Shown here piece by piece: positions 2,187-43,125 of a DNA stretch of 64,000 nt. The translations under genes were made by a program, and so were the position numbers. The stretch's first letter is position 1. Each line of letters begins with the position of its first letter. The notes beneath the pieces were generated by a model. That model did not search any database. It was given only the letters and a program-made list of their open reading frames with translations, and was not told the DNA's origin. The stretch comes from Candidatus Nomurabacteria bacterium (GTDB lineage: Bacteria > Patescibacteriota > Minisyncoccia > Phycocordibacterales > UBA9973), in NCBI GenBank assembly GCA_016699085.1, contig CP064958.1, forward strand, positions 475,181 through 539,180, read 5' to 3'.

Positions 2187-3107
2187 ATGACACTTCTAGA
2201 TATAAAACGTATTATCCGATCTGGCTTCATAAGCTTTTGGCGAAATGGCATTGTCTCTGTCGCATCGCTCCTGGTGACAACGATTACACTTTCAGTTATT
2301 GCAGGACTTATTCTACTCCAAGCCGTGCTACATATTTCGCTTGAGCAAATTGAGAATAAAGTTGATGTGACCATCTACATGACGACAGGTGCAGCTGAAA
2401 ATAAAATTACCGATATTAAGGCCTCACTTGAACAATTACCTGAAGTCAAAACTGTAACCTATGTTTCAGCAACAGAGGCGCTTGATAATTTTAAAAATCG
2501 TCACCAAGATGATTTCTTGACTTTGCAAGCACTCGAAGAATTGGGGCAAAATCCTCTTGGTGCAACACTCAATGTCAAAGCCAAAGACCCTTCGCAATAT
2601 GAAAGTATAGCCAAGTTTCTAGATACAGAACAAGCTAAGCCAGACGCAGGTGGTGTCATTGATAAAATTAATTATCATCAAAACAAGATTGTTATTGACA
2701 GACTCAATTCGATTATTGCAGGCGCTCGAGAATTGGGCTTACTGCTCACGATCGTTTTTGTAGCCATTTCAATTATCATTACCTTTACGACTATTCGGTT
2801 AACGATATACTTTACGCGTGAAGAAATTGGAGTTATGCGACTTGTCGGTGCAGAAAACAAGTATATTCGTGGTCCATTTATGGTTGAGGGTATTTTATAT
2901 GGCACCATTGCCTCAATTTTGACTATAGTAGCGTTTTTGCCACTGACGTATTGGTTGGGAAGGAATATGACTGAGTTTCTCGGTATGAACTTATTTGATT
3001 ATTTCATCCGTAACCTGCTTCAAGTTTTTGCCATTGTCTTAGTTTCTGGTATACTCTTGGGAGCAATTTCAAGTTTTCTAGCAGTTAGAAAGTATTTAAG
3101 AAAATAA
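2187..3107 (+). CDS. ftsX: Cell division permease FtsX
   Basis: Adjacent to ftsE. N-terminal TM, periplasmic domain, three C-terminal TM helices, 306 aa. Confidence 0.75.
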   Translation: MTLLDIKRIIRSGFISFWRNGIVSVASLLVTTITLSVIAGLILLQAVLHISLEQIENKVDVTIYMTTGAAENKITDIKASLEQLPEVKTVTYVSATEALDNFKNRHQDDFLTLQALEELGQNPLGATLNVKAKDPSQYESIAKFLDTEQAKPDAGGVIDKINYHQNKIVIDRLNSIIAGARELGLLLTIVFVAISIIITFTTIRLTIYFTREEIGVMRLVGAENKYIRGPFMVEGILYGTIASILTIVAFLPLTYWLGRNMTEFLGMNLFDYFIRNLLQVFAIVLVSGILLGAISSFLAVRKYLRK

Positions 3108-3119
3108 TCTATTTAGCCT

Positions 3120-4790
3120 ATGCGGAGCAAACAAGCAAAATATATTTTTGTGGTGGGGGGAGTTATATCCGGAGTTGGGAAAGGTGTCACTGCCTCCTCA
3201 ATTGGTAAGATTCTCCAAGACCGCGGGCTTACCGTTACAGCAATAAAGATTGATCCTTACGTTAATGTCGACGCTGGGACTATGAATCCCACCGAGCATG
3301 GTGAGGTTTTTGTTTTACATGATGGTGATGAGACTGATCAAGATATGGGCAACTATGAGCGATTTCTGAATACGACACTTTCGCGTGTTAATTACATGAC
3401 AACAGGGCGAGTATATCAAAGCGTTATTGCACGAGAGCGAAATCTTGAGTATGGAGGCAAATGTGTAGAAGTTGTGCCACATGTGCCAATGGAGATCATT
3501 GCTCGTATTACCGAAGCTTCAAAACAAGCGGATGCTGATGTCACAATCGTAGAAGTAGGCGGCACTGTTGGTGAATATCAAAATGTGCTTTTTCTAGAAG
3601 CAGCACGCATGATGAAAATCAAATACCCAAAAGATGTTGCATTTGTCATGGTCTCGTATTTACCTATACCGTCAAAAGTTGGTGAAATGAAGACAAAACC
3701 GACACAGTATGCGATTAGGACGTTGAATGCTTCTGGAATTTTGCCTGATGTTATTGTTGCGCGTGCAGAAAAACCACTTGATGCAAAACGCAAAGAGAAA
3801 TTGGCATTCTCATGCAATGTGCCTACCGATCATATTATTTCAGCACCTGATGTTGACTCAATATATGATGTGCCGATTAATTTTGAGAAAGAAGGTTTAA
3901 GTACACTCTTTTGCGATATGCTTGATATTGTTTGTCGTAAGCCTGCAATTGATACTGTTAAAAAGTGGAAGAAAATTGTCCAGACTATTCATCATACTAA
4001 AGACGAAGTACACATTGCTATGATTGGGAAATATTTTGATACAGGTGATTTTACACTTTCTGATTCGTATCTTTCCGTAATAGAAGCGATTAAATTTTCT
4101 GCATATGCGGTGGGTAAAAAACCAATTTTAAGCTGGATCAATGCGTTAGATTTTGAAGGTCCAGGTGGCAAAGCCAAGCTCAAGAATCTCAAACATTATG
4201 ATGGGATTATTGTGCCGGGCGGTTTTGGTGCGAGAGGAATCGAAGGGATACTGGCAGCTATTACATTTGCACGTCTAAATGCTATCCCATATTTTGGGCT
4301 TTGTTATGGCATGCAGCTTATGGTTATCGAATATGCACGTAACGTACTAAAGCTAAAAGATGCAACCTCACGGGAAATTAATCCATCAAGCAGACATTTA
4401 GTCATAGACATAATGCCTGAACAAATTGAGAAACTCGCTAAGAAACAGTTTGGCAATACTATGCGGCTTGGAGACTATGATGCTTTACTTGCAAAGGGAA
4501 CGATTGCGCACAAAGCGTATGGTACAGAAAAAATTACTGAACGTCATAGACATCGTTATGAAGTTAGTAGGGAATATATCAATGCTCTTGAAACTGCTGG
4601 TCTTGTATTTTCTGGCACATCACCTGACGGTAAGCTTATGGAGATTGCGGAGCTAAGTACGAAATCACATCCGTTTTTCTTAGGTACACAGTTCCACCCA
4701 GAGTTTCTTGCTCGTCCGCTCTATCCGCATAAACTATTTACTGCATTTATTAAGGCGGCGTATAGTCGTCGGCAGCAAAATAGAAAGTAG
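3120..4790 (+). CDS. pyrG: CTP synthase
   Basis: N-terminal synthetase domain (KYIFVVGGVISGVGKG). C-terminal class I glutamine amidotransferase (GLCYGMQL, HPEF). Confidence 0.95.
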   Translation: MRSKQAKYIFVVGGVISGVGKGVTASSIGKILQDRGLTVTAIKIDPYVNVDAGTMNPTEHGEVFVLHDGDETDQDMGNYERFLNTTLSRVNYMTTGRVYQSVIARERNLEYGGKCVEVVPHVPMEIIARITEASKQADADVTIVEVGGTVGEYQNVLFLEAARMMKIKYPKDVAFVMVSYLPIPSKVGEMKTKPTQYAIRTLNASGILPDVIVARAEKPLDAKRKEKLAFSCNVPTDHIISAPDVDSIYDVPINFEKEGLSTLFCDMLDIVCRKPAIDTVKKWKKIVQTIHHTKDEVHIAMIGKYFDTGDFTLSDSYLSVIEAIKFSAYAVGKKPILSWINALDFEGPGGKAKLKNLKHYDGIIVPGGFGARGIEGILAAITFARLNAIPYFGLCYGMQLMVIEYARNVLKLKDATSREINPSSRHLVIDIMPEQIEKLAKKQFGNTMRLGDYDALLAKGTIAHKAYGTEKITERHRHRYEVSREYINALETAGLVFSGTSPDGKLMEIAELSTKSHPFFLGTQFHPEFLARPLYPHKLFTAFIKAAYSRRQQNRK

Positions 4791-5405: not shown

Positions 5406-5459
5406 CATATAGCAAACAAAAATACACCAGTTAACTGGCGTATTTTTGTTTGCTATATG
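5406..5459. repeat. Perfect-arm 27+27-nt palindrome with zero loop and a single A/C mismatch
   Basis: Sequence catatagcaaacaaaaatacaccagtt / aactggcgtatttttgtttgctatatg. It lies between the stop of the small lmo0937-like gene and the start of the 4818..5381 gene. Confidence 0.8.
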
Positions 5460-8151: not shown

Positions 8152-9636
8152 ATGTTTACAACTACTAAAAAGAAAAAATTGAATATTCTCTTTGTTGGGT
8201 CAGAGGCTGTGCCATTCGTCAAAGTTGGTGGCTTAGCAGAAATATTATCGACATTACCGCTTGCACTTCGTGACTTGGATTATGATGTGCGAGTTATGAT
8301 ACCGAAATATGCAATCATTGATGAAAAAGAGTTTCCAATGGAAACGATTGTTAGTCAGCTAGAAGTACCGAACAAGACAGATGAAGCCATCATCTGCAAT
8401 ATCAAGGAATATGTCAGTGACAATGGCATGGTCAATTACTTTCTTGAGAATCAAGAATTTTTTGAAAAACGTGGCAGTGTGTATGGGTATGATGATGATC
8501 CTTCTAGGTGGGCATTGTTAGCTCGCGGCGCAATAGAATTTGTTCGTACCTATGAGAAGTGGCGCCCAAGCATTATTGTTGCCAATGATTGGCAAGGCGG
8601 ACTCATTCCTAATTATATGCAAGCCGAATATAAAGATGATCCGGTTATGCGAGAAATCGCATCAGTCTTTGTTATTCATAATATTTATTATCAAGGGATA
8701 CTCAACCACAAGCATATTAGCGAATTAGAATATGATGATGGGCAAACAATAATCCCAGCAATTTCTGATCCAGCAATTTGTAAACTTAATTTTATGCGAC
8801 GTGGGATTCGCTATGCGGATGTGATTAATACTGTCTCACCAACCTATGCTCGAGAAATTACAACACCAGAGTATGGGGAACTCCTAGACCCGTTACTCCA
8901 AGAGAGGCGTTCTCGATTGTTCGGTATTTTAAACGGGCTTAATTATGATATTTATAATCCAGAAACGAATCCCTATGTGGAATATCCTTACACTGAGAAA
9001 AATTTATCTGAACGTAAAAAGAATAAGAAAATATTACAACAAAAGTTTAATCTTGATGGTCGTCCTGATGTGTTTGTAGTCGCAATCGTCTCGCGATTGA
9101 CGAAGCAGAAGGGACTTGATCTTGTCCTTGAAACTATTGAGCCGCTTTTAGATAATTACGACTTTCAATTCATTGTGCTTGGTTCTGGTGATTCAAAGTA
9201 CATGTCATTCTTTGAAGAGCTCGATAAGAAATATCCACAAGTTGCAACACATCTCTCTTTTGATACTATTTTGCCCCACAGCATTTATGCAGGAGCAGAT
9301 GCAATTCTAATACCGTCCAAGTTTGAGCCATCTGGATTAACCCAAATGGAAGCGATGCGATATGGTGCAATACCGATTGCAAGAAAAATTGGTGGATTAG
9401 CTGATAGTATTGAAGACTATGATCCAGTAGCAAAATCTGGTACTGGATTCCTATTTGACAAGTATGATCCGTATGCATTTTTTGGTGCATTTATACGAGC
9501 CCACGAGACACACAAACACAAAAATCATTGGCAAGATATTCAGCATCATGCAATGCAAGCGAACTTTTCTTGGGAAAAGTCAGCTCAAGAATATGCCAAG
9601 CTTTTTGAGCGAGCGCGTAATCAATTTAATCAATAA
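8152..9636 (+). CDS. glgA: Glycogen synthase (GT5)
   Basis: N-terminal KVGGLAEI motif (K-x-GGL). 494 aa. Collinear with the GlgA family. Confidence 0.9.
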   Translation: MFTTTKKKKLNILFVGSEAVPFVKVGGLAEILSTLPLALRDLDYDVRVMIPKYAIIDEKEFPMETIVSQLEVPNKTDEAIICNIKEYVSDNGMVNYFLENQEFFEKRGSVYGYDDDPSRWALLARGAIEFVRTYEKWRPSIIVANDWQGGLIPNYMQAEYKDDPVMREIASVFVIHNIYYQGILNHKHISELEYDDGQTIIPAISDPAICKLNFMRRGIRYADVINTVSPTYAREITTPEYGELLDPLLQERRSRLFGILNGLNYDIYNPETNPYVEYPYTEKNLSERKKNKKILQQKFNLDGRPDVFVVAIVSRLTKQKGLDLVLETIEPLLDNYDFQFIVLGSGDSKYMSFFEELDKKYPQVATHLSFDTILPHSIYAGADAILIPSKFEPSGLTQMEAMRYGAIPIARKIGGLADSIEDYDPVAKSGTGFLFDKYDPYAFFGAFIRAHETHKHKNHWQDIQHHAMQANFSWEKSAQEYAKLFERARNQFNQ

Positions 9637-9641
9637 CTACG

Positions 9642-11108
9642 ATGCGCTGGGTAAATTTTCTCCACATTTATCAGCCTGCAAACCAAGCGGCTGATATAGT
9701 GACGCGGGTAGCAAATGAGAGTTATCGTCCTCTTTTAAAAACGCTCAAAGAAAATCCTAATACAAAAATTACGCTTAATATCAATGCTGCACTTTCTGAA
9801 CAGTTTGTCTCTTTGGGATTCCAAGATTTAATTAATGATATTATTTTTGTTGCCACGAGTGGTCAAATCGAATTCACCGGTAGTGCTAAATATCATGCAC
9901 TCTTACCATTTCTGTCAGAGGATGAAATAATTCGCCAAATTACTCTTAATTTTCAAACTAATCAGAAAATTTTCGGTGACGTATACAACCCTAAAGGCTT
10001 TTTTCCTCCAGAAATGGCGTATGCCCCCCTGATTGCTCCAATTGTTGAGAAATTAGGATATACATGGATTCTGATTGATGAGGTCGGCTTCAACGGGCGG
10101 GTTGCTGGAGTTGATACAAACGTTGTCTATACGATTGAGAATACTAAGCTTTCAGTTTTTTTCCGTGAAAGAACATACTCAAATTTAATTATGAGTGCAT
10201 TGGTCCGCCGAGAAGAAGATTTCAAAGACATGGAAGATTTCAAGTCAAAAAACTACTTAGTTACTGGTATGGATGGGGAAACGTTTGGCCATCATCGCCC
10301 AGGGTTACAAAAGCTTTTGACAGGACTTCTGACAACACCGGATTTTGAGCATGTTTTTATAGAAGATCTAATGAGAGACATACCAGCGAGAAAAGTTATC
10401 CAGCCTGTTATTTCCACTTGGGCATCCACTGAAAAAGATATTGAAGAAGGTAATCAATTTTTAACGTGGGATGATCCAAATAACACTATTCATCGAATGC
10501 AGTGGGAACTGCAGCAATTGGCAATTGAAACTGTCAAAAATGAAAATATTGAGGATTCTATGGCCCGTCATTTACTTGATGAAGCTTTAGCCTCGGATCA
10601 TTTTTTCTGGGCATCGGCGAGACCATGGTGGTCACTTGAAGTGATAGAATCAGGAGCCTGGCTATTGCTCGACACGATTAAAAAAACTCAAAATGTAGAA
10701 CGTACGATAAATGCTAAAGCGCTTGAGTTGTACTACGCGATCATAGCTTCGGCATTCAGTTGGCAACGCACAGGACATATTAAGGAAATTTATAAAGAGT
10801 ACCGCGAAATTCCACGAATCCCATTTAAAGATAAAACGGCAGGTGAACCCTGGGTATATGCTGCATTTATTGAGCTTATGAAAATAAAGATCAAAGAAGC
10901 AGTAGTAAAAGAAAATTTTGAGGAAGCAATACTGTGGCGTGATGCGATTTGGAAACTTGAGACAAAGAATGATTTATATGATTCACTGCATGCGGTTGAT
11001 TTACTGCGACAGAAAATTACTAATGGTGATGTGCTTGATATGATTGATAAATATAAACTCGAGTATCAGAGACTCGCGTCCGGGCAGCCTGAGCAGCGAG
11101 GGATTTAA
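9642..11108 (+). CDS. GH57-family glycoside hydrolase, possibly a GH57 glycogen branching enzyme or 4-alpha-glucanotransferase
   Basis: GH57 regions HIYQP (region I), PEMAYAP (region III nucleophile Glu), MDGETFGHH (region IV) and FFWASARPWW (region V). Confidence 0.75.
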   Translation: MRWVNFLHIYQPANQAADIVTRVANESYRPLLKTLKENPNTKITLNINAALSEQFVSLGFQDLINDIIFVATSGQIEFTGSAKYHALLPFLSEDEIIRQITLNFQTNQKIFGDVYNPKGFFPPEMAYAPLIAPIVEKLGYTWILIDEVGFNGRVAGVDTNVVYTIENTKLSVFFRERTYSNLIMSALVRREEDFKDMEDFKSKNYLVTGMDGETFGHHRPGLQKLLTGLLTTPDFEHVFIEDLMRDIPARKVIQPVISTWASTEKDIEEGNQFLTWDDPNNTIHRMQWELQQLAIETVKNENIEDSMARHLLDEALASDHFFWASARPWWSLEVIESGAWLLLDTIKKTQNVERTINAKALELYYAIIASAFSWQRTGHIKEIYKEYREIPRIPFKDKTAGEPWVYAAFIELMKIKIKEAVVKENFEEAILWRDAIWKLETKNDLYDSLHAVDLLRQKITNGDVLDMIDKYKLEYQRLASGQPEQRGI

Positions 11109-19312: not shown

Positions 19313-19984
19313 CTACTTCCGAATTATTCGGTACATTCTCCATCTATAGCCCATATCCTCAATTTCTATGTATCTTTCTGGCTTAAAATTATAAAAAGAT
19401 AACATTTCTTCGAACTCTTTGAAGTCTTCGTTACCTTTAAAATCAATGTGGGTCATGATTATTGCGCCACTATTTTGAAGATAACTGGTAGCTTCTTTTA
19501 AAAAGCGTTTGTGGATTTTATATTCAGGATCATAAAGAGCCGACTCGACTAGTCCATTAAGCGGAAAATCAGTAATTGGTAGATTCGCAATTATAATGTC
19601 AAACTTATTTCCATTTTCAATCTTGATAAACAGATCACTTTCAAATGCAGTGATTTTATCTGAAACACCATTCAATTTAAAATTCTCTTCTGCACAAGAA
19701 ATGGCAGCTGGATTTATATCCACAACTACAACACTTTTTGCGCCATCCTTAATAGCTTGTATCGCCTGGATTCCTGTACCTGTGCCCATGTCAAGAATAT
19801 TTAGACCAGTTAAATCACCGAAAATGGTATGAAGCTTTTCTGAAGTATGTGAAAAATTGCTTCTCGGCGGGAATACGCCCCTGCAAGTTTTAATCTTTAC
19901 ACCCTCAATATCGATAATTTCAGGGATTTGATTTTTTATTTGCTCAAGAAATTTTTGGCTAATTTGGGGATTTATCTTATCCAT
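19313..19984 (-). CDS. HemK/PrmC-like class I SAM-dependent methyltransferase with variant motif IV (NLPI instead of NPPY)
   Basis: GVFPPRSNFSHTSEKL (compare PrmC VLIPRPETE). SAM motif LDMGTGTG. Motif IV IIANLPI. Confidence 0.65.
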   Translation of the reverse strand: MDKINPQISQKFLEQIKNQIPEIIDIEGVKIKTCRGVFPPRSNFSHTSEKLHTIFGDLTGLNILDMGTGTGIQAIQAIKDGAKSVVVVDINPAAISCAEENFKLNGVSDKITAFESDLFIKIENGNKFDIIIANLPITDFPLNGLVESALYDPEYKIHKRFLKEATSYLQNSGAIIMTHIDFKGNEDFKEFEEMLSFYNFKPERYIEIEDMGYRWRMYRIIRK

Positions 19985-20092
19985 ATATAAGTAGTATTTT
20001 AGTAATTTTTTTGTAGCTTAGCTTCCTTCTTTAGATTTGCCTAGTCGAGTTGCGCCCTTATTTTTAGATGAGCCAAATCAGAGACTTGTTGC

Positions 20093-20170
20093 TGCGGGAC
20101 TTGCACTCGAACCCCGCCCGAACGATTTCTATCATTCAGTCGGGCGGGCAAGATACACGGTTCCAGAAAC
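20093..20170 (-). other. Partial tRNA-Gln copy running from the anticodon stem to the acceptor 3' strand. It has a 36-nt hairpin inserted between the T-stem 5' strand and the T-loop.
   Basis: Shares 23 nt (GGTTTCTGGAACCGTGTATCTTG) with the complete tRNA, then carries the insert ccccgcccgaacgatttctatcattcagtcgggcgg (a 9-bp perfect stem), then GTTCGAGTGCAAGTCCCGCA. The T-stem is CTTGC/GCAAG versus CTTGG/CCAAG in the full gene, a compensatory change. No 5' acceptor strand or D-arm is present. Confidence 0.6.
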
Positions 20171-20193
20171 CTCTATTGCTTTTATATTCAGGG

Positions 20194-20264
20194 CTGCGGG
20201 ACTTGGACTCGAACCAAGATACACGGTTCCAGAAACCGTAGTCCTACCATTAGACGATCCCGCA
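20194..20264 (-). tRNA. tRNA-Gln (anticodon CUG)
   Basis: Manual fold. Acceptor UGCGGGA/UCCCGCA (U1-A72, G73 discriminator, as for Gln identity). D-loop AAUGGUA, anticodon stem ACGGU/ACCGU, anticodon loop UUCUGGA, T-loop UUCGAGU. 71 nt with no encoded CCA. Confidence 0.85.
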
Positions 20265-20356
20265 ATAGGTCAACCATACAGGAAAAGAGGCTTTTTTTCA
20301 AGAAAATAAAAAGCCCACATAATAATGGGCTGGTAAATTTGTCTCTACTTGTAATG

Positions 20357-33748: not shown

Positions 33749-33964
33749 ATCTCCACTCTTCAGTAAGAAGGGTATCTAACAGATTATGCCTATGAAAAAC
33801 TAAACTTTTTATTTTGTAAACAAGTAAAGTTCATATATGCGCCTGTTAGACGCTTTTTTCTTTGAAAATTTAAACATCAATGTAATGTGAATTAAAGTCA
33901 GTAAGTAAAGTAATCTGAGTCAAGAAAATGTATTTTTTCTTTTGTTTCGTTCTATTTTTTAAGT

Positions 33965-35608
33965 AGAGTTTGATCCTAGCTCAGGATGAACGCTGGCGGC
34001 GTGGATAAGGCATGCAAGTCGAACGAATTTTAATTGTTGAAGTTGAAATGAAGTAGCAATATGGAATTTTGATAGATATTTTTAAAATTAGTGGCGAACG
34101 AGGTAGTAACACGTGGGTACTTCCCCCTAAGTCGCGAATAATCCATCGAAAGGTGGACTAATACGCGATATACTTCAGAGTGAAAGATTTTTCGCTTAGG
34201 GAAAGGCCTGCGGGATATCAGCTAGTTGGTAGTGTAATAGACTACCAAGGCTATGACGTCTAGGGGAGCTGAGAGGCTGACCCCCACCGATGGGACTGAG
34301 ACACGGCCCATACACCTACGGGTGGCTGCAGTCAAGAACCTTCCACAATGGACGAAAGTCTGATGGAGCGACGCCGCGTGATTGATGAAGTCCTTCGGGA
34401 CGTAAAGATCTTTTATGAGGGAAGAAGTTTATTGACGGTACCTCATGAATAAGGGGCTCCTAATCTCGTGCCAGCAGGAGCGGTAATACGAGAGCCCCGA
34501 GCGTTATCCGGAATTATTGGGCGTAAAGGGTGCGTCGGTTGTTATATTAGCCTCACTTTAAATCTTCATGCTCAACATGAAGCATGGGCGGGGAACGGTA
34601 TGACTAGAGGTTGTGAGAGGTGTGCGGAACTCAAGGTGTAGGGGTGAAATCCGTTGATATCTTGGGGAACACCAAATGCGAAGGCAGCACACTGGCACAT
34701 ATCTGACACTCAAGCACGAAAGCGTGGGTAGCGAATGGGATTAGATACCCCAGTAGTCCACGCCCTAAACGATGATCTCTCGGTTTTCGGAGTATCGACC
34801 CTCTGAGAGCCTAAGCTAACGCGTTAAGAGATCCGCCTGGGAAATACGGCCGCAAGGCTAAAACTCAAAGGAATAGACGGGGACTCGCACAAGCAGTGGA
34901 TTATGTGGTTTAATTCGATGGTAAACGAAGAACCTCACCAGGGTTTGACACCTACGTGAAAGCTCTAAGAAACTAGAGCCCTCGCAAGACTAGTAGGCAG
35001 GTGTTGCATGGCCGTCGTCAGTTCGTGGTTTGAATTGTTCCCTTAAGTGGGGTAACGAACGCAACCCTCGTCGTGTGTTATATTTGTCACACGAGACCGC
35101 CCAGAACAAAGCGCGTGAATGCGCTTCTAGTAGAAAGTGTAAAGTTGAAAGTCAAAAGTGAATTCAGAAATGCATTTACTTTAAACTTTCTACATTCAAC
35201 TTTTGACTTGAAGTGTACATCGTACGTTTCGTTCTGGGAGGAAGGAGAGGATGACGCCAGGTCAGCATGACCCTTTGATATCCTGGGCTACACACATAAT
35301 ACAATGACGGCTACAACGCGTTGCGACGAGGTAACTCTGAGCTAATCGTTATAAAAGCCGCCTCAGTTCGGATTGAGGTCTGCAACTCGACCTCATGAAG
35401 TTGGAATTGCTAGTAATCGCAGGTCAGACATACTGCGGTGAATACGTTCTCGAGTCTTGTACTCACCGCCCGTCAAGTCAAGGGAGCTGGGAATACCCGA
35501 AATTTCTACATTAGTAGGACCTAAGGTAAGCTCAGTGACAGGGACTAAGTCGTAACAAGGCACGGGTAGCGGAAGCTGCTCGTGGAATAATTCAATTTGA
35601 AACCTTTC
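33965..35608 (+). rRNA. 16S ribosomal RNA with lineage-specific insertions (expanded V1 and a roughly 120-nt insert in the helix-40 loop). The 3' tail is atypical and lacks CCUCC.
   Basis: AGAGTTTGATCCTAGCTCAGGATGAACGCTGGCGGCGTG at the 5' end. Universal blocks GTGCCAGCAGGAGCGGTAATAC, GGATTAGATACCC, GCATGGCCGTCGTCAGTTCGTG, TACACACATAATACAATG, GTCGTAACAAGG. The 3' boundary is approximate. Confidence 0.9.
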
Positions 35609-42956: not shown

Positions 42957-43125
42957 TTTGCTATTACTTCAGAATACAGTATACTTTTTATGCAGTCGTT
43001 GTCTGTGTTTACAGCGAGCGGCTGCACTCACATATGCACTTGTGTTGGAGTTAGCACCCGCTCGCTCTAAGCACAGAAAATAAAACACCCCGCACGTGCG
43101 GGGTGTTTTATTTTCTGTTACGTAC
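42957..43125 (+). ncRNA. Candidate small RNA 2, comprising a promoter-like TTGCTA-16-TATACT, a roughly 135-nt structured transcript and a terminator
   Basis: Long imperfect hairpin acagcgagcgg...ccgctcgct. Terminator aaaacaccccgcacgtgcggggtgtttt. No ORF of plausible length. Confidence 0.35.

Follow-up and report, generated by a model that had tools for sequence, protein, structure and literature searches.

A split tRNA-Gln copy in a Patescibacteria genome is probably a composite scar that still serves as an attachment site for large serine recombinase islands

On the minus strand of the window, the whole 64-kb stretch of Candidatus Nomurabacteria DNA analysed here, a promoter-like site, TTGAAA-17-TATGGT (20273..20301), serves an intact tRNA-Gln(CUG) gene at 20194..20264. 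The gene was called canonical in the initial annotation and is recognised as such by both Rfam (57.6 bits) and ARAGORN (20191-20265). It is nearly leaderless, with only 8 nt between the -10 hexamer and its start, and it has the pair U1-A72, the discriminator G73 and then CCC instead of CCA. Downstream of it, on the same strand, lie a 22-nt spacer, CCCTGAATATAAAAGCAATAGA (20172..20193), and a truncated second copy of the tRNA. The gap had previously been put at 24 nt, a figure that has to be corrected when the distance is counted from the discriminator G73 to the first repeated base.

The second copy opens with GGTTTCTGGAACCGTGTATCTTG (20149..20171), an exact 23-nt copy of tRNA positions 29-52, comprising the anticodon loop with some of its stem, the variable region and the T-stem up to its fourth base. 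A GC-rich insert of 36 nt, CCCGCCCGACTGAATGATAGAAATCGTTCGGGCGGG (20113..20148), follows between tRNA positions 52 and 53, and the copy ends with GTTCGAGTGCAAGTCCCGCAG (20092..20112), which is tRNA positions 53-73 carrying a C-to-G change at position 61 (C61G) in the window allele; the minus strand then continues with CAACAAG.... Overall, the second copy consists of tRNA positions 29-73 split by the hairpin, with positions 1-28 absent, so the 5' acceptor strand and the D-arm are missing, as had been noticed from the first. Its link to the anticodon-stem region, also part of that first description, is the exact 23-nt repeat 20149-20171/20215-20237, and a further repeat of 21/23 nt with one mismatch joins 20091-20113 to 20193-20215; shuffled sequences gave no match of either kind by chance.

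The insert folds into a perfect 9-bp stem with an 18-nt loop (-20.4 kcal/mol, z = -4.9), as first described. A dispersed palindromic element of the REP or MITE kind would have many copies in the genome; the 64-kb window holds one copy of the insert. Neither ARAGORN nor Rfam called a tRNA on the second copy, and no run of T follows the hairpin insert. No terminator was found between the tRNA-Gln gene and the second copy, which is therefore probably co-transcribed with it. The window itself holds no integrase gene, in agreement with the initial annotation, and no element arm.

Elsewhere in the window, the 16S rRNA gene (33958-35597) spans 1,640 nt versus the 1,533-nt model, and Rfam found no 23S rRNA within the 64 kb. 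The rRNA genes appear to be unlinked and the 16S gene may carry an insertion, and both features are often reported for CPR bacteria. The window also contains two palindromes, at 43073-43118 (23-nt arms, 100% complementary) and 5406-5459 (27-nt arms, 96%), the former with an A/T-rich outer part and a GC core that make it bidirectional-terminator-like.

Strain alleles of this locus were fetched by look-up of a flanking class I SAM-dependent methyltransferase gene (19313..19984, minus strand), which served as the marker for empty and occupied sites. NCBI annotates this methyltransferase as a Candidatus Nomurabacteria protein, within the Patescibacteria/CPR. Three contigs (L002, L003 and L005) match the window at 100%, and a fourth, L001 (JGI 3300056831), is 99.86% identical in the right flank and 98.06% in the left. 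L001 shares with the window the spacer, the 23-mer and the 36-nt insert and then has the unchanged GTTCGAGTCCAAG. The second copy had been credited with a double compensatory change in its T-stem (CTTGC/GCAAG), but this pair is the product of an alignment choice, since L001, with the same insert, keeps the normal CCAAG and the window thus differs from it by the single change C61G. The "C" of CTTGC belongs to the insert, as its first base, and has the final G of the hairpin as its pairing partner. The alleles of the second copy at hand are either identical or one base apart.

L001 carries another allele of the full tRNA, whose acceptor and anticodon stems differ from those of the window and which sits in a tract of about 370 bp that is about 70% identical to the window. 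It has a 33-nt leader resembling that of another locus, L057. When 20265-20301 of the window is set against L001 2790-2861, a promoter block of 37 nt proves identical, with diverged sequence to either side. The divergent tRNA tract of L001 would be explained by recombination between this locus and a diverged lineage; paralogy of two 127-aa ORFs was considered as its cause and rejected, the ORFs being unrelated. A search for further strain alleles through the HhH-GPD neighbour returned only the same contigs, a search for relatives with the methyltransferase among genome contigs returned none, and the same query against metagenome contigs gave only a 32%-identical locus. In a related genus (L007 3708-5846, also L008 and L009), the methyltransferase orthologue is 67% identical and has directly upstream of it a serine recombinase that is shorter, at 429-432 aa; the motif AAGTTCGGATTTCATTCAGGAGGGACAG, which is P-arm-like, is found 0.8 kb off, and there is no tRNA within 6 kb.

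L001 carries an island of 6,859 bp (6.86 kb) that starts exactly after the ...GTCCCGCAG of the second copy and whose right end, ...TTCAGGAGACACAG, is joined to CAACAAGTCTCTG. The window, L002 and L003 represent the empty site and L001 the occupied one, and a contig from a second sample, L004, supplies the right junction, opening with the right end of the island joined to the B' flank of the window. This flank, AACAAGTCTCTGATTTGGCTC (20070..20090, minus strand), is the host side of the crossover and runs on directly from the right end of the island in both L001 and L004. In blastn, the left and right alignments between L001 and the window have in common exactly the 4 nt CAGC (20091..20094, minus strand), the only bases common to attB, attP, attL and attR, within which the crossover is placed; L057 narrows this shared core to CAG. 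Both tRNA copies lie to the left of the island; at its far end, the P arm meets the B' flank, and no tRNA fragment is present there. The non-coding arms of the island have 53-56% G+C versus 39-40% in the host.

The occupied allele and the L004 junction support two of the readings offered earlier for this locus, an integration or excision scar and a secondary attachment site. The initial annotation had also allowed that related genomes might never show an element inserted here; we found the opposite, an island at the 3' end of the copy.

The recombinase of this island is a large serine recombinase (LSR) with Resolvase, Recombinase and Zn_ribbon_recom domains (Pfam E-values 4e-22, 4e-14 and 1.4e-08), and its cargo comprises a controller HTH protein (C-protein) and the Mod and Res proteins of a type III restriction-modification system. 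An intact attP (P-core-P') lies at 4598-4910 of L001, just upstream of the recombinase gene; over its 313 bp, it repeats the two island ends (3032-3164 and 9711-9894) perfectly and in inverted orientation. With this inverted attP inside the island, inverted repeats of 129 bp enclose the recombinase segment and others of 184 bp the cargo; the same layout occurs at other loci, with cargo of differing sizes. At two loci, L025 (9716-10010) and L034 (9761-11489), the LSR gene points away from the tRNA, in the order tRNA, core, P' and LSR, and in L034 an inverted attP follows the LSR gene. This layout suggests that the recombinase segment can invert between its repeats, and in one of the two orientations, it would come under tRNA read-through.

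The recombinase frame of L001 (2873-4513, minus strand) crosses attL into the antisense of the hairpin, the spacer and the tRNA, so that its last ~54 residues are host-encoded, and the ~45 residues before this end are encoded within the variable P' arm. The protein has 546 aa versus 512 aa in its commonest relative. The right end of the island is a 690-nt GC-rich non-coding stretch (9203-9890), 91% conserved in L015, which holds a long-range inverted repeat (about 9301-9318 versus 9592-9610) and matches no Rfam family. At a permissive threshold, Rfam returned for L001, L052 and L020 only tRNAs and one rRNA fragment, and no family in the GC-rich arms. Among viral contigs, the pattern AGACACAGCCCTGAAT had 29 matches, all in unrelated phage, the LSR protein query retrieved one distant locus, and islands of the L001 type were absent from the set.

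More than 8,000 homologues of the L001 recombinase were found at E < 1e-20, with at least 547 recombinase loci among GTDB species representatives, and copies 92-99% identical occur across MAGs labelled as different CPR classes. A convergent tRNA lies directly against the 3' end of the LSR gene at 63 of the 66 loci with enough flank (44 Gln with CUG or UUG anticodon, 17 Ser, 1 Asn and 1 Gly), indicating that the natural target of the family is the 3' end of a tRNA gene. Across homologues in more than 60 other genomes, tRNA-Gln is the target of LSRs with 59% or more identity to the query, and tRNA-Ser that of the 53-58% clade. The clade of LSRs at tRNA 3' ends is mostly from Patescibacteria, and its tRNA-Ser branch takes in loci labelled Schleiferia, Thermodesulfovibrio and Nitrospira. 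Close relatives have this junction at a complete tRNA-Gln; at L013, for example, ...GTCCCGCAG of such a gene is joined to CCAAGAAATAG. Position 61 is C in all 63 natural tRNA sites and G in the empty allele of the window.

The junctions of this family have a common anatomy. Every element has a conserved P arm, AAGTTCGGATTTTGTTCAGGAGACACAG, up to the junction, the P' arms are variable and mostly begin with CCA, and the host B' flanks are unrelated to one another. Since most P' arms begin with CCA, integration leaves an encoded CCA after the discriminator. The distance from GTTCG to the end of the core is 26 nt in P and 21 nt in B (tRNA G53 to G73), and this spacing is the same in the Gln and Ser clades. 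A half-site motif shifted by 5 bp between attP and attB is reportedly a signature of serine integrases (Rutherford et al. 2013), and the 5-bp offset of GTTCG appears to match that of the motifs read by their zinc-ribbon domains; this domain would be the one that binds GTTCG. Given that the recombinase abuts tRNA 3' ends family-wide, the 21-mer from T-loop to discriminator (G53-G73) would act as the attB half-site that the integrase reads, and strand exchange would take place within C71-A72-G73. The 36-nt insert of the window begins exactly at the outer edge of this half-site.

At this locus, four features that define an LSR attB were found together: a precise CAGC-bounded insertion with a recombinase gene at one edge, a recombinase with all three domains, no target duplication beyond a shared core of 2-4 nt (CAGC, or CAG as in L057) and a motif whose distance from the crossover is 5 bp shorter in attB than in attP. 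By these four of five defining features, the window site is a putative LSR attB, with catalysis predicted. The integrases of phiC31, Bxb1 and Listeria A118 (LI integrase) are likewise three-domain LSRs with a short, non-duplicated core, an attP unlike the attB and a motif 5 bp nearer the crossover in attB. Unlike in those systems, the target here is the T-loop-to-discriminator end of a tRNA or a pseudo-tRNA copy thereof, only one half-site per att site is conserved, and a second, intact attP lies inverted beside the recombinase gene. As of 2020, serine integrases using tRNA genes were described as "not reported previously" and as still requiring proof, with 14 cases among 297 found computationally (PMC7192596), and our literature searches for tRNA-targeting LSRs in CPR found no description.

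Extra half-sites of this kind are not confined to the window. All loci were scanned for additional copies of the host's own 21-mer. Just three lineages have them, those of the window, L052 and L020, and in each the element lies at the distal copy, a regularity that carries an ascertainment bias, since the loci were found through the recombinase gene. In L052, a full tRNA-Gln(UUG) is followed by a 37-nt spacer and then by a copy that begins in the D-arm. This copy has two GC-rich hairpins, the first within the anticodon loop and the second, CCCCGaagaaagCGGGG, which differs from the hairpin of the window, at position 52/53; the 21-mer and the element come next. In L020, the tRNA is followed by a terminator and an inverted 12-nt copy of its 3' end, and about 95 nt on lie a bare 21-mer and then the element. 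What the three lineages have in common is only the 21-nt half-site, not a fold.

Other kinds of tRNA debris accompany elements of the same family. At an occupied site in L123, a 5' partial tRNA-Gln copy (positions 1-26) with a 66-nt hairpin-rich insert in its D-loop lies upstream of the real gene at the element junction. In L078 (1560-2260), three tRNA-Ser genes stand in a row; a live element lies against the third, and the most upstream one is followed by a relic P' arm, almost complete and running up to the GTTCGAGCC motif, its recombinase gone. Decayed elements thus leave a P' arm behind a tRNA. In shuffle tests, the spacer and inserts of L052, the intervening sequence of L020 and the D-loop insert of L123 showed no significant similarity to element arms.

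The hairpin of the window, in contrast, resembles element sequence. Together with the preceding TTG, it aligns just inside the P end of the elements of L045, L081, L040, L042 and L047, sharing with those P-sides the pieces TTGCCCGCCCGA, AGAAATC and GTTCGG. The local alignment scores 27-29 versus a shuffle mean of 19 (sd 2.1). No shuffle among 500, and none among a further set of 200, attained it; the shuffles were of the mononucleotide type and may understate chance matches between GC-rich tracts. The 12-mer TTGCCCGCCCGA is the right arm of a hairpin module with a 13-bp stem, which many elements from both clades have conserved in their P-side, and the 12-mer is nearly absent outside LSR-element P-sides across 1.15 Mb of CPR loci. 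Since the L001 island lacks this module, the insert points to an earlier element of another subtype, and we infer that the hairpin is a captured P-side fragment of such an element.

The 22-nt spacer offers a fainter lead in the same direction. Its 15-mer CCCGCAGCCCTGAAT is also the attL junction of L015, a likeness that consists of CAG followed by CCCTGAAT, and its similarity to P' arms is not significant, being reached by 27 of 200 shuffles. The spacer may, as a weak lead, be a leftover of the island-side (P') arm of an earlier element.

Together, these comparisons mark 20091-20171 as a probable composite scar, one that lies at a recombination hot spot and is still usable as an attB by LSR islands, a function read here from one occupied allele, one junction contig and the junction sequences of the family. 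The integrase would dock on G53-G73 of the second copy and insert its island within C71-A72-G73. The region 5' of G53 in the second copy would lie outside the half-site and be free to decay, which fits both the 5' truncation and the position of the hairpin exactly at the 52/53 boundary. C61G would be a point mutation of the empty allele and may weaken the site.

Serine integrases are not known to duplicate their target, so the origin of a second half-site calls for an additional mechanism. Two candidates, duplication of the attL junction under a resident element followed by excision and unequal exchange at GTTCGAG between the T-loop and GGTTCGAGCC, account for some features but not for the order of spacer, tRNA(29-52), hairpin and half-site, and no simple model that was tried accounts for the exact 23-nt tRNA(29-52) piece that separates the spacer from the hairpin. 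The GGTTCGAGCC motif at the boundary, T-loop-like and at the 3' end of the recombinase gene, encodes GSN; CTCGAAC is found in two or three places close to the 3' end of the LSR gene, and one occurrence that was examined encodes part of a conserved RWLE motif. The conservation of the T-loop-like motif near the LSR 3' end may therefore lie at the protein level.

A broader reading would make the second copy one instance of a landing pad that LSR islands across Patescibacteria create repeatedly. An integrase family that recognises the tRNA T-loop and discriminator, with islands carrying two inverted attP sites around an invertible recombinase gene, would repeatedly generate 21-nt half-site duplicates downstream of a real tRNA gene, possibly through unequal exchange between the T-loop and the T-loop-like GGTTCGAGCC. 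Later islands would then land on the pad and spare the tRNA gene convergent transcription, and point changes such as C61G would immunise the pad. Taken as a whole, we consider this reading rather unlikely.

tRNA genes are textbook targets of tyrosine integrases, and the initial annotation had pointed to this class of enzyme as the one that duplicates such a segment. Under this alternative, a tyrosine integrase duplicated positions 29-73, its element was deleted down to 22 nt, and an LSR island later reused the leftover. The repeat does span the tRNA from anticodon stem to discriminator (23 + 21 nt), reportedly the classic identity block of tRNA-targeting tyrosine integrases, and CAACA follows the second copy just as it follows the real tRNA-Gln in L010, which suggests that the second copy sits on the native 3' flank. 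However, in none of about 90 related loci does a tyrosine integrase lie beside tRNA-Gln, the occupied sites all have an LSR, and the hairpin matches LSR-element sequence. Moreover, the extra copy in L020 is only 21 nt long and that in L052 starts in the D-arm, and such differing extents are not those of one integrase class. Among three marks of a tyrosine-integrase att site, the identity block is present, but the integrase gene and repeats flanking an island are not; the recombinase at this locus is an LSR, and both copies lie on one side of its island. Known tyrosine-integrase islands (Williams 2002; Islander/TIGER) likewise combine a tRNA landing site, a 3' fragment beside the island and strain-variable occupancy, but they differ in the recombinase family and in the placement of the tRNA copies, which here are on one side. 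In contrast to those islands, restoration of the tRNA gene is not needed here, since the crossover is at C71-G73. A tyrosine-integrase origin of the duplication is thus improbable.

The proposal that the second copy is a tRNA-derived RNA under structural selection, whether as a tRNA-like element, as half of a split or intron-bearing tRNA or as a signal for processing or termination, fares still worse. In its favour are the high stability of the hairpin, the probable co-transcription with tRNA-Gln and the identity of the second copy and spacer in two alleles whose full tRNAs differ. The compensatory pair on which it had leaned is missing in L001, however, the 5' third of the tRNA (positions 1-28) is lacking, the copy matches no covariance model, and the hairpin is not followed by a T run. 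The copies of L052 and L020 share with it only the 21-nt half-site, with differing extents and inserts and no common fold. The related idea of an archaeal-style insertion at position 53/54 meets the same absence of the 5' third, and it would require a bulge-helix-bulge where the predicted fold is one continuous 9-bp helix; as for an intron-bearing, split or permuted tRNA, the copy yields no complete cloverleaf once the insert is removed, and the window has no second copy of it that could supply a 5' half. Archaeal non-canonical tRNA introns and split tRNAs likewise involve insertions outside position 37/38, but here a complete tRNA-Gln lies 22 nt upstream, and the locus is not a member of that group. 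We regard selection on an RNA structure as very unlikely.

An inert local duplication, in which replication slippage copied part of the tRNA and a palindrome arose later at random, has in its favour nearby short exact repeats typical of slippage but is hardly credible, given that an island sits exactly at the end of the copy in a sister strain and that extra copies recur at LSR-occupied sites in two other lineages. In its simplest form, a tandem duplication, it was rejected, since the spacer would be repeated after the second copy and a different sequence is found there.

A composite scar at a serine recombinase hot spot has a counterpart in the SCC elements, whose CcrAB serine recombinases insert at the 3' end of rlmH/orfX and which form composite arrays where remnants accumulate. 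In both cases, a serine recombinase targets the 3' terminus of a conserved housekeeping gene. The islands described here differ in having an RNA gene as target, a host range over many CPR classes and a type III restriction-modification cargo.

For genome annotation, the locus illustrates that what looks like an odd tRNA, partial and with an insertion, can instead be a live attachment site. It also opens onto hundreds of Patescibacteria loci with a serine integrase against the 3' end of a tRNA, in which the recognition logic is readable, with the T-loop as the offset half-site motif. The near-identity of LSRs across differently labelled CPR classes suggests a broad-host-range vehicle for defence genes. 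The mobile elements of CPR organisms are poorly known, and these islands are also a possible source of integrases for a near-universal sequence.
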